Origin: a virus
Lineage: Duplodnaviria; Caudoviricetes
Reading direction: 5' to 3' (one strand)
IMG/VR virus record: IMGVR_UViG_3300043580_000039
Location: 1 to 42,065 of that record
Length of the DNA stretch: 42,065 nucleotides
In this document: positions 7,536-42,065 of the stretch, piece by piece
Layout: each line of letters begins with the position of its first letter
Position numbering within the stretch: position 1 is the stretch's first letter
The notes under the pieces: generated by a model
The model's database searches: none
What the model saw: the letters and a program-made list of their open reading frames with translations, nothing else
Told to the model about the DNA's origin: nothing
Position numbers and translations under genes: made by a program

Positions 7536-7820
7536 ATGGAAATGGAATTCCTTGGCGATAGTTCTTGTATAAGCTCTGCTGGATACGAAGCAGGCTATTT
7601 AACTGTTGAATTTGAAACAGGGGAAGTTTATACTTACTCTGAAGTACCTCCCCAAGTATATGGAGCTTTCAAGCGTTCTACAAGTAAAGGCTATTATTTT
7701 AATAGGGCTATAAGAAATAACTATAGTTTCACGGAAGGGCCGGCACCTGATTTGGATGTCAAGGAAACAGGGAAAGCCCTATTAGAAACTATGTTGGGTC
7801 CTGAGTTTTTTGATAGTTAG
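7536..7820 (+). CDS. KTSC domain protein
   Basis: SSCISSAGY...LTVEFETGEVYTY..VP..VY..F....SKGYYFN..IR..Y matches the KTSC consensus. Confidence 0.85.
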   Translation: MEMEFLGDSSCISSAGYEAGYLTVEFETGEVYTYSEVPPQVYGAFKRSTSKGYYFNRAIRNNYSFTEGPAPDLDVKETGKALLETMLGPEFFDS

Positions 7821-8014: not shown

Positions 8015-9205
8015 TTAACTCCCGCCACCTCTCAAAGCAGTAATAGCTCTGGGTGTTAGCTGATAATAGACTCCATCCTTAAGCATATGCTGTTTAAGAA
8101 TACCTGCCTCTTCGAGTGCTACTACAGCTTTATCCATAAGCTCTATATCAAAATTCTGCCAATGTGTTCTGATTATTATCTTCCTGCTAAGTGTGTTATT
8201 GTCAGCAGTCAGTAAGTCAGTGATAATTGTCCCACCGATATTTCCTATTTCTGTCTTTGCGTTGTTCATGGTGAATAGATTGTAGTTTGGAACCAAGCCC
8301 AAACATTCCTCAATTGCCTGTTCTATGTGGCGTTTTAATATACATTGGCTAAGGTCATTAGCAGCTAATATCATGCTTATCTTTAACACGTGCGTATGAA
8401 TACGACCTACGATACCACTTATTTCTTTCTTTTGACTGTAAGACTGTCTGAAGGGATTGTACCAATTCTCGTATTCAACAATCGCAGCCTCCTCAAGTTT
8501 AAATTCTCCATGCAGTTGTGTTATTTTCTTGATATGCGCCAGCACGTTCTCTTTACTTACTTTCAGCGCATCGTGATCCACTCGCATTAAACTATTACTT
8601 TGTCGAAACTCGTTAGGCGTTATAAGAAGTGTACGAGCTAAAAAACCTCCCCTAATTACAGTTTGGTCAAACAAACCTTGTAGCATATCCTGATTACTTG
8701 CAGCTATTACAGAAAACACAACTCTATCAAGTGTAACCGTGGGACCTGTCCGCAGCCGGTACTTATAGTTAGGTTTGTAATCATAAATATCTGTCAGGAT
8801 CTTCAGTCCATCAGGATCTGAAACAATACCTGCGCTAAGTTCCGTTGCGTAGAAAGTTGCTGCACTTGACTTAATTACTTTCCCATTAGCATCTGTTTCT
8901 GCACGGCCTAATTCATCTATAATAGCCTGTACAGAAGCACGCCCACTTATAGTTTTATAAGAAGGCACACTTGTATTAACCAGACTTTCACAGAATTCTA
9001 TTGGCCGGTTCTTTCTATGGCCAGAACTTTCTGCTAGAAACAGAATATACAGATTGGGGAACAAGAAACTATCCCCGTTCTTTATATAACACCTATCTCT
9101 TAGTGCAGTTGAAATAAGTGAGTAGGAACTCCACTTCCAAAACGACGCTGGGCTTTCAAAGATACTACTGTGCTTGAGATACGCACTAATGAAATTTTCT
9201 GGCAC
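8015..9205 (-). CDS. DUF3987-like P-loop protein (putative replicative helicase-like)
   Basis: F..WS....IS..L......PNLYILF.A.S..RK and GGFLAR motifs; C-terminal winged-helix-like segment; adjacent to the polymerase. Confidence 0.6.
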   Translation of the reverse strand: MPENFISAYLKHSSIFESPASFWKWSSYSLISTALRDRCYIKNGDSFLFPNLYILFLAESSGHRKNRPIEFCESLVNTSVPSYKTISGRASVQAIIDELGRAETDANGKVIKSSAATFYATELSAGIVSDPDGLKILTDIYDYKPNYKYRLRTGPTVTLDRVVFSVIAASNQDMLQGLFDQTVIRGGFLARTLLITPNEFRQSNSLMRVDHDALKVSKENVLAHIKKITQLHGEFKLEEAAIVEYENWYNPFRQSYSQKKEISGIVGRIHTHVLKISMILAANDLSQCILKRHIEQAIEECLGLVPNYNLFTMNNAKTEIGNIGGTIITDLLTADNNTLSRKIIIRTHWQNFDIELMDKAVVALEEAGILKQHMLKDGVYYQLTPRAITALRGGGS

Positions 9206-9264: not shown

Positions 9265-9552
9265 CTACTTAACACCTGTTGTTTTATAACTACGCACGTT
9301 ATTCAAGTGCATCAAACCTTTAACTCTATCAGTAATACCTGTGTCTACTTTACGAAAATTAGCAGTCCCGCGACTATAAGCATTATAAGCGTCATCACCT
9401 TCAGTAGTAAGCACTAGTTTATTTCCACTTCTGGTAATCCAACCTCTTACTAATAAACTACCAAAAGTAACCATGCTAAAAGTGCCAGCATCTGTAACAG
9501 TAACTTCATGATTTACTAGATATTTTAGAGTCGAGTATTGATATGCTGTCAT
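9265..9552 (-). CDS. Hypothetical protein, possible winged-helix
   Basis: SLLVRGWI...LVLTTEG pattern; translationally coupled to the upstream gene. Confidence 0.5.
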   Translation of the reverse strand: MTAYQYSTLKYLVNHEVTVTDAGTFSMVTFGSLLVRGWITRSGNKLVLTTEGDDAYNAYSRGTANFRKVDTGITDRVKGLMHLNNVRSYKTTGVK

Positions 9553-9872
9553 TTCGTATGGCCTCCTGCCAATCCTTCTATCAAAGCTACGACATCGTTA
9601 AGAAAATTCTTCTGATCCCTCAACTTGTGCAACAGTTCGCTAACTGTCATCTCCTTGATTAGCTCAGGAAGTTCTGCTTCACCTATTAGTTTTACTGTTG
9701 GTACGACAGCTTCCTTATCCCTCTTCTTATACTCTCTAACAGTCTTATGCCTAGGACCAGTTTTAAAATTATTCGCAAAGCTTTCAGAGTGAACCGCCCA
9801 CTGGTGTTTCCGTAAACTCGACAAACCGTTAAAACCTTTTGACTCCGGGCACTTCTTACAATAAACTCGCAT
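9549..9872 (-). CDS. C2H2 zinc-finger protein
   Basis: YCKKC-x5-F-x5-L-x2-H-x4-H; AGGA RBS. Confidence 0.7.
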   Translation of the reverse strand: MRVYCKKCPESKGFNGLSSLRKHQWAVHSESFANNFKTGPRHKTVREYKKRDKEAVVPTVKLIGEAELPELIKEMTVSELLHKLRDQKNFLNDVVALIEGLAGGHTK

Positions 9873-9920: not shown

Positions 9921-12410
9921 TTAACAACTTGTTGTTTCCAACTTAATTTCCTGCATTGCGTTCTCATCCCATGATTCGCCAACACTAATTTCAGCAGGTA
10001 TTACCAACTCGAAATCTCTTCTAAGAGTACACTTCCTAAAGTCGATAGGATCACTCTCAACATTTTGTTTATAGAGCAATCCAAATTCAAGCGCACGATC
10101 TTTTTTAACCTCACTAAGAGCAGAATCGTGGTTCTCAGAAAGCAAAGCCGCCCACTCGTTAACCCGTGGCTGACTATAAGTTTTTGCGATACCACTAAAT
10201 TTTGTCTGGTCACTAACAATAGTCTGTGGCAGGAAACTAATACCTTCGTTATAAGTACCTTTATCAATCCTATCAAAAAAGTCACGACGCCTGCCATTCG
10301 GTGCAACTAAACAATGACTAGCTAAGTCAATAGCTTTGCGAATTTCCCTATGGAAAACATCTTTAATTGCAGGTTCTTTCAGAGTGATCTTATCTAGAAG
10401 TGTCTTACACTCTTTTACTGGCCGCTGTGTCATCATAGAGAGTCTATCAGGTCCCATGTTTCTCTCATAAGCATGTCGCACAGTTTTAGATAAGTGATAT
10501 CTGTCAATCCCATCCACAAGAACATTCTTAAGAATTTGACTTGGCAGGCAATCAAAAACTAGTGATCCGGTGTATCTATGGATGCCAGGATTATTAAATA
10601 CCCCCATATCAAAATTGCCACTAAGCACCCTATCAACTCTAGCTTCAGCCCCATTAAGATCGCACTCAACAAATATAAAACCTGGACTTGGAACAAACAT
10701 AGAACGCAAGTCTTTTCCATAAGTCTCCCACTCTATCATGAAGCCATGTTTACCAATAGTCTGTAAGCTGTGACCTAAGTTCTTTACTAGTATCTTGCCA
10801 TCTTCAATATAAATAAGTTGATCTGTTGTTTCACCGGCACTTGAACGTCCGTTCTCAGTACCTGTAAGATTAAATTCACACCTGAATCTTTCATCAGGAT
10901 GCAAATGAAGCTCTAAGATCTCTATAACCTTGTGAAGTTTCCGGGCTCCAATAATAGCACTAAGCACAAGTGGCCCACTGCTAGGAGCATGTTCTGCTTC
11001 ACCGTAGACTTTAAGAATATCTAAAGATTCCTCATCAGTACTAGGTTCTCCCTCTTTAGTTGTTTTCATCCCCCGGAGTTTTTTATAACCTAGCTCTGTG
11101 AAAATAACTTCTCGGCACTGTTTGCTACTCAGTGGATTAAAGTAATCTCTATTCAACAGGAAGCGACACTTGAGTTCCTGAATATGAAACAAACTTTCGT
11201 ATCTATCTAGAAGTGAAAGCTGCTTAGTTTTGTCAATACGAATGCCCCTATCTTCCATCTTACGATAAATAGGTAAGCAGAGCATCATGTTATCATAGAC
11301 TTCTTTAACACCTAGCTCAACTAATTCTTTCTTCTGTACTGTGTAGATCTGGTGATCCGCTAGGCTATCTTTAGCATTATATAAATAGTATCTATCACGC
11401 TTTGTCCTATCAGGATCAAAACTCTTACCCTCGTCTTTAAAATAGGGAAGCTCAGTATAAATAGAAGTGAGGAATCCTAGATTCTTGGGGAATTCGCAAT
11501 ACAGGGCACTTGAGGCCAGCATAGTATCGCCAACCACGTTATTAACTTTAAAACCCCACCTCTCCATGAGTTTCCAGTCATACTTAATATTTTGGTTAAC
11601 TTTAGGAATATCACTAGCTAGCATACGTGAAACTAGATCCATCATAAGAACTCTATGATCGTGATCTATACTAGAATCTACAAGAGGAACACAAACAGAT
11701 TCAAATCCGTCAAAGCAAAAGCTTATGCAGATAGGAATCTGAAAGTAAGTCTCAATATCGAATACAAGAAAACCCTTATCTTCTTTACACTTCTTGAAAG
11801 CTCTATCAAAGAAAGCTCTAAGAGCACCTGAGTTTCTAGCTACCCATATGTTATATTTTTTATCAGGGATAGGATCGTTATTAAGATATCTGCGGATCTT
11901 ACCAAAGTCAATTCGACTAATAACACGTAATCTGTACTCTTGGTTAAGATACGGATATGGTCCTAAAATTGGTAGGACTTTAAGATTTTCCTGGGTAAGT
12001 GAAAATTGACCGGCGGGAGGTAAAACAGAACCTCTGAACTTTCTAATGCTGTTCAGGTTTGTGAGGAAGTTGAAACTTTGCTCTCCCAAGGGAATCAAGA
12101 GATTCGGCTTTAAGTCATTAATCTCTTCAATTAAGATTGGCCCATACTTATCTAGCAGAGGTTGAAAGTGCAAATCCTCTTTAGTTTTATCAGCTTTCTT
12201 GAGTTTCTTCTCTGAGATAGCAGGCACTTGCTCTTTAATAAGACAAGAGCGCCAAAAGTCATCCAGATTTAGATTCTGCTCTTTACAAAAGTCTCTAAGC
12301 AGATCGCCACTATGACCCACTAAAGCATAGCCTGTATCCATATCTTTGCCATGCGGGGCATCTGCAATAAAGAAAGCTTGAGGATTCGAATTACCGTGGC
12401 TTTTTATCAT
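9921..12410 (-). CDS. polA: Family A DNA polymerase with N-terminal uracil-DNA-glycosylase-like domain and 3'-5' exonuclease
   Basis: UDG4-like GN..P.AFFIADAP...G.ALVG.SG.LL; Exo motifs FDIET, NQNIKYD, YNAKD; TENGRSS; motif A DLNGAEAR; motif B R...K...H; motif C HDS. Confidence 0.9.
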   Translation of the reverse strand: MIKSHGNSNPQAFFIADAPHGKDMDTGYALVGHSGDLLRDFCKEQNLNLDDFWRSCLIKEQVPAISEKKLKKADKTKEDLHFQPLLDKYGPILIEEINDLKPNLLIPLGEQSFNFLTNLNSIRKFRGSVLPPAGQFSLTQENLKVLPILGPYPYLNQEYRLRVISRIDFGKIRRYLNNDPIPDKKYNIWVARNSGALRAFFDRAFKKCKEDKGFLVFDIETYFQIPICISFCFDGFESVCVPLVDSSIDHDHRVLMMDLVSRMLASDIPKVNQNIKYDWKLMERWGFKVNNVVGDTMLASSALYCEFPKNLGFLTSIYTELPYFKDEGKSFDPDRTKRDRYYLYNAKDSLADHQIYTVQKKELVELGVKEVYDNMMLCLPIYRKMEDRGIRIDKTKQLSLLDRYESLFHIQELKCRFLLNRDYFNPLSSKQCREVIFTELGYKKLRGMKTTKEGEPSTDEESLDILKVYGEAEHAPSSGPLVLSAIIGARKLHKVIEILELHLHPDERFRCEFNLTGTENGRSSAGETTDQLIYIEDGKILVKNLGHSLQTIGKHGFMIEWETYGKDLRSMFVPSPGFIFVECDLNGAEARVDRVLSGNFDMGVFNNPGIHRYTGSLVFDCLPSQILKNVLVDGIDRYHLSKTVRHAYERNMGPDRLSMMTQRPVKECKTLLDKITLKEPAIKDVFHREIRKAIDLASHCLVAPNGRRRDFFDRIDKGTYNEGISFLPQTIVSDQTKFSGIAKTYSQPRVNEWAALLSENHDSALSEVKKDRALEFGLLYKQNVESDPIDFRKCTLRRDFELVIPAEISVGESWDENAMQEIKLETTSC

Positions 12411-13490: not shown

Positions 13491-13928
13491 TTAAAAAGCA
13501 GGTGCTGTTGCTCCGTAGCCTTTCGGATGGAAACTGTTAACAACATTTATCAAATGTCCATCAACAGTCTGAACTCCCCATGCTGCATCGAAAGGCTGGT
13601 TTACCAATTCATCGGTATCCAGCGCAAAATCTTCTGCTTTAACTTCCCGCCCGGAAATAGCAGAATGTACAGTTAACAAATAAGCCTGCGGGAAGAATTG
13701 CATATCTCCCAACAAGCTAACATTGTTCGACTCCGAATTAAAAATAACAGTTCGGGTTTTCCCTTTGTACTCACCCTCTGTAATTGTGAAATCTACAAAG
13801 TAGTGAACTGATTTACCACTAGTAGATTTCGTGGGTCCGGTAAGACTTGAAATCTCAGTAGGGTAAATATTTGCCGGGACCACAGTGGTCTGCAAAGCAT
13901 CTGCTGCGTTAAAGTGAATTACGGCCAT
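13491..13928 (-). CDS. Single-stranded DNA-binding protein (DUF669-like)
   Basis: VP...Y...I.......S.SGK....V.F.I.EGEYKG; aromatic C-terminus (APAF); follows the AAA ATPase. Confidence 0.6.
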   Translation of the reverse strand: MAVIHFNAADALQTTVVPANIYPTEISSLTGPTKSTSGKSVHYFVDFTITEGEYKGKTRTVIFNSESNNVSLLGDMQFFPQAYLLTVHSAISGREVKAEDFALDTDELVNQPFDAAWGVQTVDGHLINVVNSFHPKGYGATAPAF

Positions 13929-13962: not shown

Positions 13963-14814
13963 TTATTTACTAGTAGCAATATCATTAACATTACTAGAAA
14001 CCTTGTTCGCTAATGCTAGTGTAAACTCACGAAAATCTTTGCCTGTGATATCATAGTATCCAGGTTTGAATCCAGGGAAACTTGTACAGGCGAGATCACT
14101 TATATATTCCACGTAAAACTTTTCCTGCCCATTCTCAACTTCCCGATCAAAGCGAAATATGTGATCGAAGTAGATAGACATGTTAGCACTGATTTTATCT
14201 CTCAGGCTTAACTTCTCACCTACTTTAATACTATCCGCATAAGCATCTTTATAAGTCTTATTATTAACTGTAACCATAGGCTTATCAAACTTATCAATAA
14301 CATGGGCCGTCATAATAACATTAATAGGGAGGCTTCGCAAAAAGCTTAGATAGCTGTCCATGCCGGTAGATTCAAATCCATAATCTTCAGGACCTGCCAT
14401 ATTAACAGTTCCAAGCCTCTTACCTTTATTCTCCGCATGTGTTAGCGGAATAGCATCCAAGATAAGATTCTTGCAAAAAGCTGTAGCACTATCAGATATA
14501 TAAGTTTCATAGGGTGATTTTCCTGTACCTATTAAAGTCATCAAGGCATCAAGATCATCATTCACCCGCTGAAAAAAAGTGCTAGTGTTACCAGCTATCT
14601 TAGGTGGGAAATAATCATAATCAATACGAGTTTTATCTATCCAGGGGGCTCCAAGAATACCACGAATACGGCCATCCCCATCTAAAACTTTAGCTCTTTT
14701 CTTAGGATCTTTACTTAACCAAGAGCAAGCTGCTACAGTTTTCCCACTGTGCTTTGGTCCTACAAAAAGAGCCATAAAGCGGCTTTCCGGTGTTAGATTA
14801 CTTGCTGTCGGCAT
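13963..14814 (-). CDS. AAA_24/Sak4-like ATPase (recombination/annealing)
   Basis: Walker A GPKHSGKT, Walker B-like ISDS, NVIMTAHV, YFD. Confidence 0.75.
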   Translation of the reverse strand: MPTASNLTPESRFMALFVGPKHSGKTVAACSWLSKDPKKRAKVLDGDGRIRGILGAPWIDKTRIDYDYFPPKIAGNTSTFFQRVNDDLDALMTLIGTGKSPYETYISDSATAFCKNLILDAIPLTHAENKGKRLGTVNMAGPEDYGFESTGMDSYLSFLRSLPINVIMTAHVIDKFDKPMVTVNNKTYKDAYADSIKVGEKLSLRDKISANMSIYFDHIFRFDREVENGQEKFYVEYISDLACTSFPGFKPGYYDITGKDFREFTLALANKVSSNVNDIATSK

Positions 14815-16301: not shown

Positions 16302-17279
16302 CTACCAGGGCCTCCAAACATTTTCCTTGATCTTGAATAACTGTTTCTCTTTACCTTCAGCAACTCTTGGATCGATCTCTTCGCAGAGTGTTGTGTAATA
16401 ACAATACTGCGGTTTATCTTTCTCATAAGTCAAGCGAGCACCAGAACATGCTCCCCAATTTCTTTCGATCTCCTGTTTATTCTGACTGGCCTGGAGAACC
16501 TTCTTCATTCTCTGAAAGATAGCAATTAGCCTTTTGTGCCAGGCCGCTAACTCTACACTGTTAAAAGTAATAATATCTCGGGTTAGAGAATCCGGTTGGA
16601 TTTTTTGTTGCAGTCTCACGTAATTCGTCACGCCCATCGACAATTTCGTAATTAGTGAGTAGTTTTTGAATTGGATACTTCGAGGATAAAGCCAGTGGGT
16701 CTTTGTTTGAAACTTGTGATCCATGAAACATTCAAGTCCCTGAAGCTTCCCGATGATATCTATGCGACCTTCGAGAACAAACAGATTCTCCGAATCTTCG
16801 AATATGCTTTCTGAGAATCCTACTTCAACATGTTGTTCACTCAGCGGAATAATATCATTCTGCTGGTAGTTAAAAACATATTCCCGAAAGCGCTTCCGAA
16901 CTTGAGAGCGTACTAGATTACTAAGATTAAAAGGATGCGCACGATACTTTGTGCATTTCTTGCAACGTTTGCACTCTTCGATGTTAAGAACCTGCACTAA
17001 GCAGTGGAATTCTTTTGAACATCCACATTCGCAGATATCCTCATCAGGATTATATGCAAAGCAAGCTTCCAGTGCATCGTTAAGTCCTACCCCCCGAAAC
17101 TTGAGTCTGTAGAATATGTCAAGTAACTTATGACCGTAGGTTCCGGCGTTCATTGCCTCATCTTGCAGATTGAAATATGCCGGTTCCAATCTTTTAATAT
17201 AATAGTTTAACCAACGTTGCGGACACTCAAGAAACATGGAAATCTGCGAACTATCTTGGACTAGAGTAAATTTGCTCAT
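16302..17279 (-). CDS. PD-(D/E)XK Cas4/RecB-like exonuclease
   Basis: S.I..F.ECP, GT..H, EGRID...DHK, Q...Y, C-terminal C...C....C. Confidence 0.8.
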   Translation of the reverse strand: MSKFTLVQDSSQISMFLECPQRWLNYYIKRLEPAYFNLQDEAMNAGTYGHKLLDIFYRLKFRGVGLNDALEACFAYNPDEDICECGCSKEFHCLVQVLNIEECKRCKKCTKYRAHPFNLSNLVRSQVRKRFREYVFNYQQNDIIPLSEQHVEVGFSESIFEDSENLFVLEGRIDIIGKLQGLECFMDHKFQTKTHWLYPRSIQFKNYSLITKLSMGVTNYVRLQQKIQPDSLTRDIITFNSVELAAWHKRLIAIFQRMKKVLQASQNKQEIERNWGACSGARLTYEKDKPQYCYYTTLCEEIDPRVAEGKEKQLFKIKENVWRPW

Positions 17280-17768: not shown

Positions 17769-19520
17769 TTACAACCGCCCCGCAATAGTTCTTTCTGCAA
17801 GGTCTCTAAAACTTACTGCATCCTCTTGGATATTCCAGTTGTTGTAAACTGTTTCTCCTACTGCTAATCTTTTACCTTCTACCATGTCATACCACCATTC
17901 GTCTAGAGTACCTTTAGCAATAATATATTCTACGTTCGTGGGATTCTTTTTGATGCTGAAATCCGGATTGTAGAACCTAAATTCAAACTGCGCTTCGACT
18001 TCTGAATTCCATTGCCTTTCCAGAACCAGCACATTATCGCAATAGTGGAAATCCATTCCGACACCACCGGCTAACATATTAACAATAAGAAATTGTCTTG
18101 AAGAGTGCTCCCACTCCCGCATGATTCTATCTTTTTGCTCTGCGTTATCTTGTCCACTCAGCTTGTAGCAATTCTTGTCCATTCCAAGCTTTGTGTAAAG
18201 AACTTCTCGCACGGTTTCGTGATGGATACCAATAGCATACTTAGCATCAGTTTCCATTGTGCAAGCTTCAAGATAATCCGCAGTCCACATAAGTTTCATG
18301 AGCCCGCAAATCCGCCGCAGCTCCATTAGATCATCGGCAAGATCAAAATAAGTTGGATTAGCTTTCGCAGCTATCTTTGTTTCCATCTTATCTAGAACTT
18401 TGTTATAAGCCGATGTCAAACTAGACTTATCAGGTTCGATAACTGTATAAATTTTATTAAGCTTGGGAAGCTCTTTGTAGACATCCTCTTTCTCTCTTCT
18501 TAGAAAGTAAGGTTTGATTACATCTTTAAAAGCTTGTATATAACCAGGTTTAACACGCGACCACTTTCCCTTGCTGTCTTGTTGTAACCAAGTGCGTCTG
18601 AAAGATTCCAGACTTGAAAACTTCTCAGGATTTACAAGATTCAGAGGTACGAAATACTCTTCAGCGCGGTTTAAAATTGGAGTACCAGTAAGCAAAATCA
18701 AACCACAGGGCTTGCTTATTGGATCTTGTTTTCTATCCTGTGATTCTTTATGTTGCTGTTGTTGATAGCAATGTTGTCCACATTCCGGGCATTTTGTAGA
18801 CTTGGCAATCATAACATGCCCGATACGCTTATCGAACTTCTGTTTTCCTTCTTCTTCCCACTGGTGCTGACATCGCACACAAGTAAAATCTAACATCTTA
18901 GAAACTTCACCTGTATTGAGGAAAGCTACAAATTCTGTAAGAGCCTGACTTCTGTTAGATTCAGTATTCTTAAAAGAATGAGCTTCATCCGCAATAATAA
19001 GTTTGAAGGGAATCTTTTTGAGAGATTCTAGAACTTTAGGACGAGAGAATGTATCCATGCTTAGAATATAAGCTGAGAAACCCGGTGGAATCCAGGCATT
19101 AGAACCAATAACAGGGAAAATACCATTTGGCAAAGTATCACACCAAACTTTGTACTCGCGAATCCACTGCCAAAGATTTGCACTGCGTACTAAAATTAAG
19201 CAAGGGGTGCGTTCTTTATAAGCATTTTTAAGTGCTAGCAGACCTTGGGGAGTTTTACCTAGGCGCATTTGGTCACCCAGGATACAATTAAAATCTGACT
19301 CTAAGATAAATTGAACGCCGTCCTCTTGATAAGGCCGTGCATGTTTATCTGTTAGGTCAGCAGATTTAAAATCTAGATTACTTTTATCAACTACCGTAAT
19401 ATCTTTTGCAAACAAGTGCCCGCATTCGTACTCAAAAAGCTTTGTTCCTTCGATAGTGAATTCATTCTTGAGTTTCAGAATCTTTCCACATTGCGGGCAT
19501 TCGTATTTTAGTTTAGCCAT
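17769..19520 (-). CDS. SNF2-family helicase/ATPase with Zn ribbons
   Basis: RPYQ, DQMRLGKT, DEAH, LLTGTPILN, LRR.K..V...LP, AGGVG. Confidence 0.85.
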   Translation of the reverse strand: MAKLKYECPQCGKILKLKNEFTIEGTKLFEYECGHLFAKDITVVDKSNLDFKSADLTDKHARPYQEDGVQFILESDFNCILGDQMRLGKTPQGLLALKNAYKERTPCLILVRSANLWQWIREYKVWCDTLPNGIFPVIGSNAWIPPGFSAYILSMDTFSRPKVLESLKKIPFKLIIADEAHSFKNTESNRSQALTEFVAFLNTGEVSKMLDFTCVRCQHQWEEEGKQKFDKRIGHVMIAKSTKCPECGQHCYQQQQHKESQDRKQDPISKPCGLILLTGTPILNRAEEYFVPLNLVNPEKFSSLESFRRTWLQQDSKGKWSRVKPGYIQAFKDVIKPYFLRREKEDVYKELPKLNKIYTVIEPDKSSLTSAYNKVLDKMETKIAAKANPTYFDLADDLMELRRICGLMKLMWTADYLEACTMETDAKYAIGIHHETVREVLYTKLGMDKNCYKLSGQDNAEQKDRIMREWEHSSRQFLIVNMLAGGVGMDFHYCDNVLVLERQWNSEVEAQFEFRFYNPDFSIKKNPTNVEYIIAKGTLDEWWYDMVEGKRLAVGETVYNNWNIQEDAVSFRDLAERTIAGRL

Positions 19521-19817: not shown

Positions 19818-20603
19818 TTATTTCTTGTAGACTCCTGTTTTAAGTAAATCTGCATCTATTGCAATAGCTATAGCTTCTTTCGAACCGCCGAACTTTGTTA
19901 GCATATCTATTGAATTATTCCGCTGTTTGAAAATCTTTAGGGCTGCTTTTCTTTCCAGCAACCCATGATCTGACATAAACTGCCCTAAAGCTATTTCTTC
20001 AGAATCGTCAACAGCCTTAGTAGTAGGCCTGCTACTTGTAAGAGCTTCTTTGCGCGCCTTATCGAAATGCCGCTTTTCCCGTTCTGCAAGTGCATCTTTC
20101 CTTCTTTTTGGATCTTGTTGAATTGCTATTTGAGTTTGTGCGACACATGCCTCTAACATTTTTAAGTGTAGAGACTTCTGTTCAAAGTCCATTTCACTTA
20201 CTAATCTTGTAGACTGTAGCCTAGCGTTATTTTCGTTAGTTATTAAGCTTAGCTCCATATCAGGAATAACACTAAGCCGTATCATGTTTAAGTAATCTAA
20301 TTCTAGAGAGCTTACCGGAACCTCCCGCTCAATTTTAATAGTTTGTGCCAGACCAGCACATCTAATATGTATAATATCCATATCAATATATGCTGGTTCT
20401 TGCCCAGGTTCTAGCAGTTTGTGATATCTTTCGAGACACCATAAAGCTTCCCTGAGATTCACAGGTTCTTTACATGAAGAACACGCGTTATGTTCGTGGC
20501 AAAACATCAAACCTGATTCACGTGTGTCATGACCTAATGTTTTAGCACACACTAGGCATTCTTTGTATTCTTGTCGGATAAGTTGCAAAGTTGAGCCCAT
20601 CAT
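19818..20603 (-). CDS. Zn-finger plus coiled-coil hypothetical protein
   Basis: CxxC...CxxH..CxxC N-terminus. Confidence 0.65.
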   Translation of the reverse strand: MMGSTLQLIRQEYKECLVCAKTLGHDTRESGLMFCHEHNACSSCKEPVNLREALWCLERYHKLLEPGQEPAYIDMDIIHIRCAGLAQTIKIEREVPVSSLELDYLNMIRLSVIPDMELSLITNENNARLQSTRLVSEMDFEQKSLHLKMLEACVAQTQIAIQQDPKRRKDALAEREKRHFDKARKEALTSSRPTTKAVDDSEEIALGQFMSDHGLLERKAALKIFKQRNNSIDMLTKFGGSKEAIAIAIDADLLKTGVYKK

Positions 20604-28734: not shown

Positions 28735-29136
28735 ATGCTCGCAGAAATCACGCCGATTAACATTCCAGGTATGAGACCAGATAACTCACTTCCTGGTTCT
28801 GGAAATTATCCAGATAACAGTCTTCCTGGCGGTGGTGTAAGTGTTGCACCTCCAATTGTTCTACCTCCACTTCCTCCAACAGTAAAACCGCCGGTAGGAA
28901 TTTGGCCTCCACAATTACCAACTCCTGGACATCCGGCTCAACCTATTTTTATTCCTGATACTCCTGATAATTCTCTACCTCCAGAACTTCCTCCTGGTTC
29001 TGTTTGGCCTCCTCTTAATCCTGGAGATGGAATTGGAGGAAAAGTTCTAGCCTTAGTTTGGCTAGTAGGTGTAGGTTACAGATGGGCTGTTTTGCAAGGT
29101 CCACAGATTTGGCCGCCAGTGGCACAACCCAAATAG
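28735..29136 (+). CDS. Proline-rich PDNSLP-repeat protein
   Basis: PDNSLP x3, (I/V)WPP x3, hydrophobic LALVWLVGVGYRW segment; AAAGGA RBS. Confidence 0.75.
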   Translation: MLAEITPINIPGMRPDNSLPGSGNYPDNSLPGGGVSVAPPIVLPPLPPTVKPPVGIWPPQLPTPGHPAQPIFIPDTPDNSLPPELPPGSVWPPLNPGDGIGGKVLALVWLVGVGYRWAVLQGPQIWPPVAQPK

Positions 29137-36036: not shown

Positions 36037-36069
36037 CGGGGGGCTCGGAATCTTGGGTCCCCCGCTTTT
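36037..36069 (+). terminator. Terminator after the capsid genes
   Basis: CGGGGGGCTCGG / TTGGGTCCCCCG stem (several G-U pairs), then TTTT. Confidence 0.6.
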
Positions 36070-36091
36070 AAATAAAATAGGAGAATATGAA

Positions 36092-36859
36092 ATGGCCGCC
36101 GCCCTTAAGAAAAGATTGAAAATAGTTGTAGGAACTAACAGTTTAACTGAAGCTCAGTATCCTGCTTACACTAATCATTGCCAATTTTGGTTCAGGCTTG
36201 GTAGAAGTTATCCTGATATAGACTTTGTTTTCTCAAATCCGAGTCGAATGTCTATTGATAGAATGCGGAATATGACTGCAAAAACTGCAATAGCTACTGA
36301 TGCAGATTATATTCTTTTCTTGGATGACGATGTTTTGGTAAATCCTAACTATGGGTTGAAACAACTTATCGATTGTAAAGCTGATATTGCAGCAGGTAAA
36401 GTATGTGTAAGAGGTTGGCCTTTTGATTATATGGCTTTCTTAAATGATGGGGAAGGGTTGCAAATTCTAAAGTACATGCCTAAAAAGGGCATGTTGGATG
36501 TAGATGCGGTTGGATTCTCCTTTGCTTTGCTAAAAGTTTCTTTGCTGAGAAGACTTCAGGAGCCTTATTTTATTACAGGTGTGAATCATACTGAAGATAT
36601 TTACTATTGTATTAAAGCTAGGCAGGTGGTCCCAAATTGCACTATCAAGATTAATTGTGAGTGTGAGTGTGGACATATACTGTGGCCTGAAATTATTAAC
36701 GAAGAAAACAGGGAAATCTACATGGAATATTTTAAGAAGATAAATAAAATAACAGAAAAAGCAAAGCCGAATGGCGCTGGTGATAGAGGTTCAGAATATC
36801 TAAAAATGGTAAAAGGACAAACTTATGCTAGTAAAAAAGCAAAAGAAGCGAGAGCTTAG
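36092..36859 (+). CDS. GT-A fold (family 2-like) glycosyltransferase
   Basis: RN...A....DYILFLDDD (DxD), VDAVGFSFAL, EDIYYC, GH; ATG 36092 with AGGAG RBS. Confidence 0.85.
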   Translation: MAAALKKRLKIVVGTNSLTEAQYPAYTNHCQFWFRLGRSYPDIDFVFSNPSRMSIDRMRNMTAKTAIATDADYILFLDDDVLVNPNYGLKQLIDCKADIAAGKVCVRGWPFDYMAFLNDGEGLQILKYMPKKGMLDVDAVGFSFALLKVSLLRRLQEPYFITGVNHTEDIYYCIKARQVVPNCTIKINCECECGHILWPEIINEENREIYMEYFKKINKITEKAKPNGAGDRGSEYLKMVKGQTYASKKAKEARA

Positions 36860-37409
36860 ACTTAACATAGGTTGTGGTAGTAATAAGATATCAGGTTATG
36901 TAAATATAGATGCTGAGAAAACTTGCAAACCTGATATCTTATTAGATATAACTAGGAACTTGTTGCCTTATAAAATAGGTACTGTAGATGAAATCTTGTT
37001 TTTTCACTCTATAGAACATATAAGTAAAGCACTACATAGGCCGGTTTTACTTGAATTTGCCCGTGTTTTAAAGCCTTGTGCTAAATTAATTATTAGTTAC
37101 CCTAACTTCTGGGAATGCGCCAAAAGATGGTTCAAGAATACTAATGGACAACGTACTTTTTGGGAAGCTACACTTTATGGCAGGCAACTTTACCCAGGGG
37201 ATTTTCATGTTTGTGCTATGAATCCTGACGAGTTAACTAGTATGCTTTATGAATGTGGATTCAAAAATGTTAAATCTTTCCCTGAGCCAATAGAAGTTTT
37301 TAATACTGTAACTACGTGTATTAAGAATCCAAATGGACCTATTCCAACTTATGAAACTGTAATAGCTAATGATATGAAAAATATGCTAGTAGTCAAGGGG
37401 GCTGCATAA
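36825..37409 (+). CDS. Class I SAM-dependent methyltransferase
   Basis: LNIGCG motif I, GYVNID, VDEI...H.IEH, RVLKP...L.I..P. Confidence 0.85.
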   Translation: MLVKKQKKRELRLNIGCGSNKISGYVNIDAEKTCKPDILLDITRNLLPYKIGTVDEILFFHSIEHISKALHRPVLLEFARVLKPCAKLIISYPNFWECAKRWFKNTNGQRTFWEATLYGRQLYPGDFHVCAMNPDELTSMLYECGFKNVKSFPEPIEVFNTVTTCIKNPNGPIPTYETVIANDMKNMLVVKGAA

Positions 37410-40701: not shown

Positions 40702-41535
40702 ATGGCAGCAACTAACGAAGCTTACTTTCGAAGATATCTTGTAGATCCAACAAGTATTGATGCTAATACTCCTAAATATGGAGAAATAATAGAAGGGCCA
40801 CCTGGACCACAAGGCCCTATGGGTCCACAAGGAATACCTGGACCAATAGGTTTAACAGGTCCGGCAGGAACACCAGGAATACCAGGAGCTACAGGTTCTC
40901 AAGGACCACAGGGAATCCAAGGTCCCATAGGAAATACTGGTCCTACTGGAAATACAGGTGCCCAAGGTCCTGCTGGAGTTCAAGGTGCAACAGGACTAAC
41001 TGGCCCACAAGGAAATCCTGGAGTTATAAATGTTGTTCAATATCAAGGTATTGTTACAAGTTCTAGACCTAATTTAAATTTTACAACAACTGGTACAGGT
41101 GTTACGGTTACAGATGATAATGTTAATAATAGAACTAACGTATCTATACCTGGACCGGCTTCAGGTTCTAAAAGAAATAGTTCAAGTCCAAGTGGTAACT
41201 TACTTCTGACAACAACTTATCAGGATATCAGCAATCTTTCGCTGACTGCCACTGTTACTGGAGTTTATATTGTTATTGGCGTGATTGATTTTTCTGTCAT
41301 TGGAGCAGGGGATAACGGCCAACTTTTACTCGGTAGATTAAATGCTATTGGAGTTCCACAAACACAACTTATTATTTTTGCAGGGCTTGATACTTCTAGG
41401 GCAACTGTTACTCAAACATGGCTAGTTGGTTTGAATTCAGGTCAAAGTATTACATTACAAGCAAGTAAAGGTGGCGGATCAGGAAGTAGTTTAGCTGGTG
41501 TCCATAGTTCACTTGCAATGATAGCAGTGCTTTAA
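40702..41535 (+). CDS. Collagen-like fibre protein with C-terminal beta-sandwich (BclA/C1q-like)
   Basis: 25 consecutive G-X-Y triplets (40795-41019); LNF.G.GVTVTDD linker; GGAG RBS. Confidence 0.8.
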
Positions 41536-41548
41536 GAGAGATCTGAAG

Positions 41549-42065
41549 ATGCCGGAAACTTTATTTAACCACGACTTTAGTGCAGGCTGGTGTCCTTCTG
41601 ACGATCAAGTTGATGGGAGGCCAAATGCTTTACTTCAGATGGATAATTTAGAACTTGATAGGAATGGCGCGCTGCAACTTATTCATGGCACGTTAGGAAT
41701 TTGGGGAGGTTTTACTGGCCATGCACATACTATGTTTAGTAGATTTATAAATAATGTACGTTATGATTATAGTGCGCTTGACGACGGATCTGTTTATCGA
41801 AATCCTGTTAGTATTATAACTGGTGGGGATACTACTAATGCTGCTTTTGGAACAGCTTTCAACTTTACACTTATCTGTTCAGGTACTAAAAGATTCAAGG
41901 ATAACGGCACTACTCTAGTAAATTTAGGTGTTCTGCCGCCAACACTAGCTCCTACAATAACACAGAATGTTCTTAATGCGCCTTGGGCTTTAATAGGGAA
42001 CATGCAAACTAATGTGGCTCTTATTACAGGAGCTTACGCTGTTATTAGCTCTAATTATATACAAT
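41549..42065 (+). CDS. 5' part of tail tubular/nozzle protein; joins 1..2646 across the circular junction (total ~1003 aa)
   Basis: ATG at 41549 (MPETLFNHDFSAGW...MDNLELDRNGAL) is open to the contig end and in frame with position 1; the DFSxG...N.....G.L start is typical of podovirus nozzle proteins; missing from the ORF track. Confidence 0.8.
   Translation, partial: MPETLFNHDFSAGWCPSDDQVDGRPNALLQMDNLELDRNGALQLIHGTLGIWGGFTGHAHTMFSRFINNVRYDYSALDDGSVYRNPVSIITGGDTTNAAFGTAFNFTLICSGTKRFKDNGTTLVNLGVLPPTLAPTITQNVLNAPWALIGNMQTNVALITGAYAVISSNYIQ
41915..42065 (+). repeat. Terminal direct repeat, copy 2
   Basis: Matches 1-151 with one mismatch. Confidence 0.95.

Follow-up and report, generated by a model that had tools for sequence, protein, structure and literature searches.

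In family A polymerases, two residues numbered as in the Klenow fragment of Escherichia coli DNA polymerase I (Pol I), Glu710 and Tyr766, have been described as conserved without exception (PMC3715850), and the tyrosine has elsewhere been called otherwise strictly conserved (PMC8599892). The gene at positions 9921-12410 (minus strand) of the IMG/VR virus record IMGVR_UViG_3300043580_000039 encodes a polymerase of this family in which an arginine, Arg650, appears to stand in its place. Does this residue really occupy the position of the tyrosine and, if so, what kind of polymerase works with it? The window, that is the whole stretch of 42,065 bases that was analysed, was found to belong to an undescribed phage branch of UDG-PolA (PolA with a uracil-DNA glycosylase-like domain), in which a residue held to be invariant has been replaced in a conserved and repeatedly evolved way. 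The protein is laid out as follows, with Klenow equivalents after the equals sign; counts out of 120 refer to the best 120 of 297 homologues, query included, and the clade is the main group of Arg766 proteins described below.

9921..12410, minus strand: DNA polymerase of 829 amino acids with a UDG-like domain, a 3'-5' exonuclease and a family A polymerase domain (Pfam PF03167, PF01612 and PF00476 over cut-off; phrog_17, E 6e-58)
11880..12401, minus strand: family-4 UDG-like domain (residues 4-177), predicted inactive as a glycosylase
11313..11855, minus strand: 3'-5' exonuclease domain, Exo I-III intact (D218, E220, N274, D278, Y344 and D348 in 93/93 aligned clade members)
11748-11762, minus strand: Exo I, FDIET, which like Exo II and Exo III was located by sequence
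11577-11597, minus strand: Exo II
11367-11381, minus strand: Exo III, YNAKD
10644..10661, minus strand: motif A, DLNGAE, with D584 (=D705) and the steric-gate E589 (=E710), kept in 120/120
10632..10634, minus strand: Asp593 (=Met714), acidic and clade-specific, in the helix after motif A (167/167 in the clade; outside, Val in 261/283)
10578..10586, minus strand: Gly609 (=Asp732, lost) and His611 (=His734, kept)
10452..10502, minus strand: motif B or O helix, RYHLSK at 10485-10502 and TVRHAYERNMG at 10452-10484
Within motif B, minus strand: Tyr638 (=R754, 10497-10499), Lys642 (=K758), Arg645 (=N761) and His646 (=F762, 10473-10475)
Within motif B, minus strand: Glu649 (=I765, 10464-10466), Arg650 (=Y766, 10461-10463) and Asn651 (=G767)
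10224..10250, minus strand: motif 6, Asn721 (=Arg841, lost), Ser725 (=Asn845) and Gln729 (=Gln849, kept), in the register of the family profile against Klenow
10122..10133, minus strand: motif C, NHDS, with His761 and the catalytic Asp762 (=D882), kept in 120/120

The motifs that a first-pass annotation had quoted from the sequence (RYHLSK, TVRHAYERNMG, DLNGAE, NHDS and Exo I-III) were all recovered at these places, and its assignment of histidine to 762 and arginine to 766 was borne out by the family alignment, by the profile against Klenow and by structural alignment. The KxxRHAGNYDM of distant relatives aligns with KTVRHAYERNM of this protein, and a profile of 137 family members ran ungapped against Klenow through motifs B and 6, with its K, H and Y on K758, F762 and Y766. 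In parallel, a model of residues 505-650 was aligned with its last residue, Arg650, on Klenow 766, Bst 714, Taq 671, T7 530 and Mycobacterium smegmatis 745; these alignments of a small piece (Z 3-6.7, root-mean-square deviation (rmsd) about 3-5 Å) support the register, not side-chain geometry. Arg650 is at the Tyr766 position and His646 at the Phe762 position, and the full model shows a helix over residues 637-649 with O1 from 654. Tyr648, the tyrosine of 'AYE' that had been named as a possible occupant of 766, was ruled out by the structural alignment, which puts the arginine there instead, and by its presence in only 9/120 homologues. Position 650 is R in 119/120 and K in 1/120, so that a sequencing error or a private change is excluded and the motif is shared by relatives, as the first-pass annotation had asked to be checked. 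Moreover, six Arg codons are used at this site across 65 open reading frames (ORFs) of the loci, and synonymous codons are also freely used at Glu765.

A single-sequence scan of viral contigs gave no relative and an alignment scan gave 46 loci. In total, 512 polymerase sequences were pooled, filtered for Asp705, Lys758, Asp882 and a residue at 766, and freed of duplicates, which left 450 distinct domains; the three filter residues are invariant in this set by construction, and its sampling favours proteins related to the query and to the database protein P0197. His762 was found in 438/450 domains, with Tyr (243), Arg (169), Lys (1), Leu (22), Phe (9), Asn (3) or Gly (3) at position 766. The main clade comprises 167 of the 170 Arg/Lys766 proteins, and its 47 sampled members were monophyletic with a support of 0.974 in a 218-row tree built without motif B and positions 593 and 721. 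Glu765, Asp714, Tyr754 and His762 are each present in 167/167 members. The canonical motif B, RxxxKxxx[F/Y/L]xxxYG, is thus departed from at His762 and at Tyr638 and Arg650, which replace Arg754 and Tyr/Phe766. The His762 UDG-PolA family, as delimited in this analysis, is recognized by His762, a UDG-exonuclease-polymerase order and a downstream DUF3987 gene, all present here. No cultured phage with Arg766 was seen among the best GenBank phage matches (about 24%), the three that were inspected being His762-Tyr766.

Several linked changes at 714, 732, 765 and 841, together with Arg754 to Tyr, had been missed in the first-pass annotation. The arginine of RYHLSK, with which that annotation opened the motif, is the variable Arg637 (present in 106/120); the Arg754 position is one residue away and is occupied by Tyr638. 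His646, Glu649, Tyr638, Asp593 and Asn721 occur in 120/120 homologues, and position 841 is Asn in 164/167 clade members and Lys/Arg in 269/283 proteins outside. Tyr754 and Gly732 are combined in 167/170 Arg/Lys766 proteins, and Arg754 and Asp732 in 227/280 others: Arg754 pairs with Asp732 and both were lost together, which fits the Asp-Arg salt bridge described in mycobacterial Pol1 (PMC7102940). The loss of Arg754 predates Arg766, because Tyr766 is combined with Tyr, Gln or Glu at 754 in sister lineages. A coupling of Arg761 to the loss of Arg754 was also looked for outside the clade and none was seen (44/52 vs 205/231).

Glu765 is found in all 170 Arg/Lys766 proteins and in 0/243 Tyr766 proteins. 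The Glu-Arg pair is also carried by P0197, P0319 and P0335, far from the main clade, and three further proteins read Glu-Gly. On a 300-row tree, built without motif B columns from 20 of the 167 clade members and other rows under 40% gaps, the fewest changes were 3 for Arg766, 4 for Glu765, 24 for non-Tyr, 14 for Leu and 5 for Phe. A 40-row tree, its set picked after earlier trees had been seen, gave 4 changes, and the approximately unbiased (AU) test rejected a single Glu-Arg clade (p 1.67e-47). Glu765-Arg766 apparently arose 3-4 times. Across independent cases, Arg766 is linked to Glu765 alone; its association with Asp593 and Asn721 stems from a single origin.

Other solutions at this position were observed in the wider family. 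P0284, P0287, P0307, P0341, P0347 and P0349 have Phe766 together with Gln replacing the steric-gate Glu710 (for example motif A DMSACQ) and an insertion before His734. P0353, P0377 and P0378 combine Glu765-Gly766 with Arg at the Asn845 position, the arginine being possibly supplied from motif 6 instead of the O helix.

The protein is a family A polymerase by fold and descent, outside all described motif B groups. The PF00476 match reaches 52.5 bits for a cut-off of 34.3, and the AlphaFold model (pLDDT 95.4) matches Pol I, Bst and Klenow structures at Z about 29-31, with a Klenow-type fold against 6vdd (Z 30.9, rmsd 3.7, 547 residues aligned). The first-pass annotation held that the catalytic aspartates, the steric-gate glutamate and the exonuclease motifs are retained, and D584, E589, K642 and D762 are indeed kept in 120/120 homologues and the Exo residues in 93/93, while R522, the Arg668 equivalent, is invariant in alignment A1. 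Glu883 of motif C is missing family-wide (Glu in 2/283 relatives outside the clade and 0/167 inside), and its absence does not set this protein apart. Purifying selection acts on the gene, the ratio of nonsynonymous to synonymous rates (dN/dS) of the polymerase domain being 0.025-0.067 in 5 of 8 relative pairs, with two others saturated. That the polymerase is active, with an altered pocket for the nascent pair, as had been proposed, is apparently right given the conserved residues and the rounded dN/dS of 0.03-0.07; the unusual substrates and uracil handling proposed along with it are not supported, as described below.

We think it likely, though well short of certain, that this enzyme is a proofreading replicase of ordinary DNA with a rebuilt fingers pocket, in which Arg650 is predicted to assume the roles of the tyrosine. 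In the open state of Klenow, Tyr766 is stacked on the terminal pair, and in the closed state its partner is Glu710 (PMC3715850; PMC7155079). Y766F behaves almost normally, and side-chain size and shape outweigh the hydrogen bond to E710, a rule that leaves room for a large planar substitute (PMC3715850). An ancestral fingers helix with His762, mostly as Arg761-His762, may have relaxed the need for Tyr766, which would thereafter have been replaced many times by Leu, Phe, Asn, Gly or Arg. Arg766 would be the one charged solution, viable only beside Glu765; the guanidinium of Arg650 would stack, and it would pair with Glu589 and possibly also with Asp593. Within the main clade, this replacement would have been locked in by the new Asp593 below the end of the O helix and by the loss of the template-binding Arg841, a charge swap, the Arg754 and Asp732 anchor having presumably gone already in sister lineages. 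The triphosphate contacts of the lost Arg754 would be covered by Arg645, His646, His611 and Lys642, and the UDG-like domain would be structural or DNA-binding only.

A bolder version of this proposal, which we regard as possible but doubtful, is that a second chemistry of the fidelity checkpoint has evolved repeatedly. The Glu-Arg pair would gate the nascent pair electrostatically and not by aromatic stacking, and the main clade would work without the gamma-phosphate-binding Arg754. Such enzymes would have a distinct profile of errors, of dideoxynucleotide (ddNTP) or analogue use or of lesion bypass, possibly with primase-free chain starts.

The genome around the polymerase bears on what it can be expected to do. 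The window is a complete phage record (CheckV 100%) that contains terminase and major capsid genes and no N among its letters. Although the record is listed as linear, its two ends (1-151 and 41915-42065) carry a 151-base direct repeat (99%), and the genome is either complete or closed into a circle. In Pfam and PHROG scans, the ORF at 9921-12410 is the sole polymerase among the window ORFs. It belongs to a module in the order SNF2, PD-(D/E)XK exonuclease, Sak4, probable single-stranded DNA-binding protein (SSB), polymerase, two small ORFs and DUF3987 protein, the DUF3987 gene adjoining the polymerase in Arg766 and Tyr766 loci alike on the gene maps.

8015..9205, minus strand: DUF3987 AAA+ protein, probable replicative helicase without a primase domain (PF13148, E 2e-5, below cut-off; Atlas score 0.98 to DUF3987 clusters)
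13491-13928, minus strand: probable SSB (a homologue of this 145-amino-acid ORF matches the SSB family phrog_378, E 4e-5)
13963-14814, minus strand: Sak4-like annealing protein (phrog_124)
16302-17279, minus strand: PD-(D/E)XK exonuclease of the replication module
17769-19520, minus strand: SNF2 helicase-like protein of the replication module

The slot between polymerase and helicase holds a 107-amino-acid ORF (9549-9872), whose homologue has a C2H2 zinc-finger match, and a 95-amino-acid unknown ORF (9265-9552), both present only in close relatives. In relatives, unrelated small genes alternate in this slot (L063:2546-3010, L070:11812-12246, L026:1328-2136), and some resemble dATP/dGTP pyrophosphohydrolases or nucleoside deoxyribosyltransferase. 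A cysteine-rich ORF of 261 amino acids (19818-20603), for which no family was found, is conserved on the upstream side of SNF2 in 22 loci, of which 20 have Arg766. Outside the module, a KTSC-domain gene (7536-7820) ends the structural arm, a collagen-repeat tail-fibre-like gene lies at 40702-41535, and a proline-rich ORF of 133 amino acids with PDNSLPG repeats (28735-29136), with a homologue in G001 only, stands just before the terminase region. No tRNA was found. As for the host, a scan of bacterial genomes turned up three distant loci and, at 40%, one contig of 1.8 kb, none of them usable.

Several points weigh against Arg650 acting as a stand-in for the tyrosine in an ordinary replicase. 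P0197, P0319 and P0335, single database sequences known at the protein level, keep R754, D732, V714 and K/R841. Asp593 and Asn721 are therefore not required for Arg766 and may be clade history rather than compensation, and the candidate of an obligate compensation by either residue is unsupported. Y766A and Y766S are mutators in Klenow (PMC3715850) and the Arg754 equivalent is called non-mutable in Taq (PMC8599892), so that fidelity or rate may differ from those of Tyr766 enzymes. In a relative-rate comparison of root-to-tip lengths in the Arg clade and others, with only 5 sister loci, the PD-(D/E)XK exonuclease was longer in the Arg clade (median 2.32 vs 1.37-1.91). The R650-E589, R650-D593 and R645-phosphate contacts are predictions. 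Finally, the palindrome avoidance reported below is an indirect sign and is common to Tyr766 relatives.

Some of these points would also suit a lower-fidelity or lesion-tolerant replicase, in which Arg766 loosens the insertion pocket and the intact exonuclease cleans up; we consider this unlikely. Non-aromatic substitutions at 766 are mutators in Klenow (PMC3715850), and the longer branches of the adjoining PD-(D/E)XK gene go in the same direction, as does the slightly higher Sak4 median of the Arg clade. On the other hand, the DUF3987 helicase tree shows no speed-up (median 1.48 vs 1.02-1.65), so that the look at rates for a mutator is mixed. The enzyme is moreover the sole polymerase of a 42-kb genome, and the strict fixation of Glu-Arg suggests a specific new contact and not a loss.

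It is improbable that template handling, and not base checking, was retuned, with Arg766 gripping the template backbone in place of Arg841 for strand displacement or for coupling to DUF3987 or SNF2. This would account for the replacement of Arg/Lys841 by Asn in nearly the whole clade and for the lack of an aromatic residue at 771, and R841, S769 and F771 of Klenow act in strand displacement (PMC10520511). Nevertheless, Lys/Arg841 is kept in the three distant Glu-Arg proteins and the gene module is shared by Tyr766 relatives.

The lack of a recognizable primase raises the idea that the polymerase itself primes DNA synthesis, the phage having a helicase without a primase, and we hold this to be very improbable. 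Prim-Pol, DnaG N-terminal, Toprim_2 and archaeo-eukaryotic primase (AEP) small-subunit families had no match in 5 complete genomes each (the window being included for the last three), no primase was found in Pfam scans of the window ORFs, and the DUF3987 protein begins nearly at its ATPase core. Considered as a possible primase, the 261-amino-acid ORF at 19818-20603 gave Atlas scores of at most 0.80 and TM of at most 0.27 by query. In favour of self-priming, CCPol, a family A enzyme, can prime together with MP (PMC7581432). However, Tyr766 relatives, among them Microcystis phage Mel-JY34, have the same module without a primase. The missing primase is therefore not explained by Arg766, and the unusual priming suggested in the first-pass annotation is not tied to that residue. 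The exonuclease is also whole, unlike that of CCPol; a host primase, transcripts or Sak4/exonuclease recombination could prime, and a divergent primase may have escaped the searches.

The last alternative concerns the substrate, and much of the evidence on it comes from the UDG-like domain and from the composition of the genome. Compared with Thermotoga maritima UDG, GEGPG is replaced by ADAPH, PF by AL, N by C56 and HP by GP, and the cluster cysteines are lost; we take these changes to fall on the uracil-pocket residues Phe, Asn and His and on the cysteines of the cluster. G150 of this domain is found in 91/93 clade members, and the UDG family model TIGR00758 scores 23.9 for a cut-off of 125.3. 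The pocket thus looks degenerate and the domain is predicted to be inactive as a glycosylase. In P0319, Glu-Arg coexists with a UDG motif that looks intact; the two traits are thus independent of each other, and uracil handling as a reason for the altered motif B is not supported. PurZ (PF00709) and thymidylate-synthase (PF00303) family genes were found in 0/5 complete genomes, window included (controls 14/14 and 10/14; remote homologues of the latter could escape), and Pfam scans of 135 + 78 further ORFs of the window and relatives, most of them without any match, gave no base-synthesis pathway, which also speaks against unusual substrates. Among palindromic hexamers expected at least 4.5 times, 6/48 are absent from the window (0.05 zeros expected), namely CTGCAG (0 observed vs 10.7 +/- 3.6 in shuffles), CCATGG, GGATCC, GAGCTC, GCATGC and ACCGGT, as compared with 0/1859 non-palindromic ones. 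All 17 Arg766 and 15 other loci tested were palindrome-depleted (observed/expected 0.50-0.90), and this avoidance suggests DNA that can be cut by host restriction enzymes. GGATCC was also scarce in many of the related loci, which may hint at the restriction systems of the host.

Pyrophosphohydrolase-like genes are enriched in Arg766 modules (12/20 vs 3/25 others, or 10 vs 2 when only search-named families are counted). One family was named by phrog_801 and a sub-threshold PF18909 match and one by phrog_5658; the third is presumably of the same kind. As a requirement for Arg766 these neighbours were ruled out, being enriched but absent from the window. In distant His762 phages, a fusion of ParB-N with an N6/N4 methyltransferase lies upstream of the polymerase (L124:7394-8713 and 25 other loci); neither the Arg766 clade nor the Tyr766 sisters closest to it have this fusion. 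As a cause (0/20 Arg766 modules, 18/25 others) it was rejected, the five nearest Tyr766 loci being also without it. Right after the major capsid gene of the window (36053-37409), an Anp1-like glycosyltransferase gene (E 1.6e-6) and a methyltransferase-like gene are present, with homologues in 4/5 and 3/5 related genomes, respectively, and their position suggests decoration of virion proteins rather than DNA modification. A pocket fitted to a modified base or to a changed dNTP pool, as in DpoZ or SPO1, could draw on the pyrophosphohydrolase-like genes, on these two transferase genes and on Tyr to Phe, the only described natural change at 766, which occurs in both DpoZ groups (PMC10201439; PMC8599892), but it is the least probable of all given the lack of pyrophosphohydrolase-like genes in the window and 7 other Arg766 modules, the absent PurZ and thymidylate-synthase matches, the strong palindrome avoidance, a score of 22.8 against the DpoZ profile NF038380 (cut-off 500), the degenerate UDG pocket and the siting of the transferases among capsid genes.

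What emerges is a large natural clade without both Tyr766 and Arg754. Its near relatives form a graded series (Tyr, Phe, Leu, Gly or Arg at 766, with or without Arg754) to which independent Glu765-Arg766 origins are added, and with this series one can test directly why the tyrosine does not vary in other enzymes and what freedom His762 gives. For strand displacement or the incorporation of analogues, too, these enzymes are candidates, as yet untried. The entire family would have been dropped from a viral PolA survey that kept only F/L/Y762 (PMC9069017). In the same way, the accessible parts of PMC6302109 and bioRxiv 10.64898/2026.05.20.726624 discuss only F/L/Y762 types, and no paper on a His762 or Arg766 PolA was found in literature searches, most subscription papers being outside their reach. 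PMC10201439 distinguishes 19 PolA clusters, leaves non-N4 UDG-PolAs unclassified and gives Phe at the 766 position of DpoZ as a unique substitution, though its logos and supplements may show His762 members.

Compared with E. coli Pol I Klenow, Bst and Taq (PolA cluster 1, PMC10201439), the fold is the same (Z 29-31, rmsd 3.3-4 Å) and D705, E710, R668, H734, K758, Q849, H881 and D882 are shared. The differences here are R754 to Y, D732 to G, F762 to H, I765 to E, Y766 to R, G767 to N, M714 to D, R841 to N, N845 to S and E883 to S/G/A, and the UDG-like domain replaces the 5' nuclease of these enzymes. The same UDG-exonuclease-polymerase order, over about 800-900 amino acids, is found in N4-like cluster 17 and in the unclassified UDG-PolAs of SPO1, SP-10 and SP-15 (PMC10201439). 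A degenerate UDG is common to this protein and the N4-like enzymes, but the latter have Phe at 762 (position B3), where His646 stands here; SPO1 types serve modified-uracil genomes, whereas here the UDG catalytic residues are replaced and Pfam scans found no genes for modified-nucleotide synthesis. No His762 or Arg766 is described for either type in the accessible text of that paper. Two named phages, Microcystis phage Mel-JY34 (PP438425) and Desulfofustis phage LS06-2018-MD01 (OP947158), share His762, the UDG-like N-terminus and the gene order as far as a downstream gene of about 360-400 amino acids (DUF3987 in Mel-JY34); they are about 24% identical, keep Arg754 and Tyr766 and have a ParB/methyltransferase-type gene upstream, and no characterization of their polymerases was found. 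DpoZ enzymes (phiVC8-like and Wayne-like) also carry a natural substitution at 766, but a conservative Phe and not Arg, and their PurZ pathway was not found in this phage or its four complete relatives, the score against the DpoZ model being far below cut-off. Finally, in CCPol-MP-Cch2 of the staphylococcal cassette chromosome SCCmec (PMC7581432), a family A enzyme stands beside a helicase without a separate primase, as here; CCPol is without most of its exonuclease and needs MP, whereas Exo I-III are whole in the phage enzyme.

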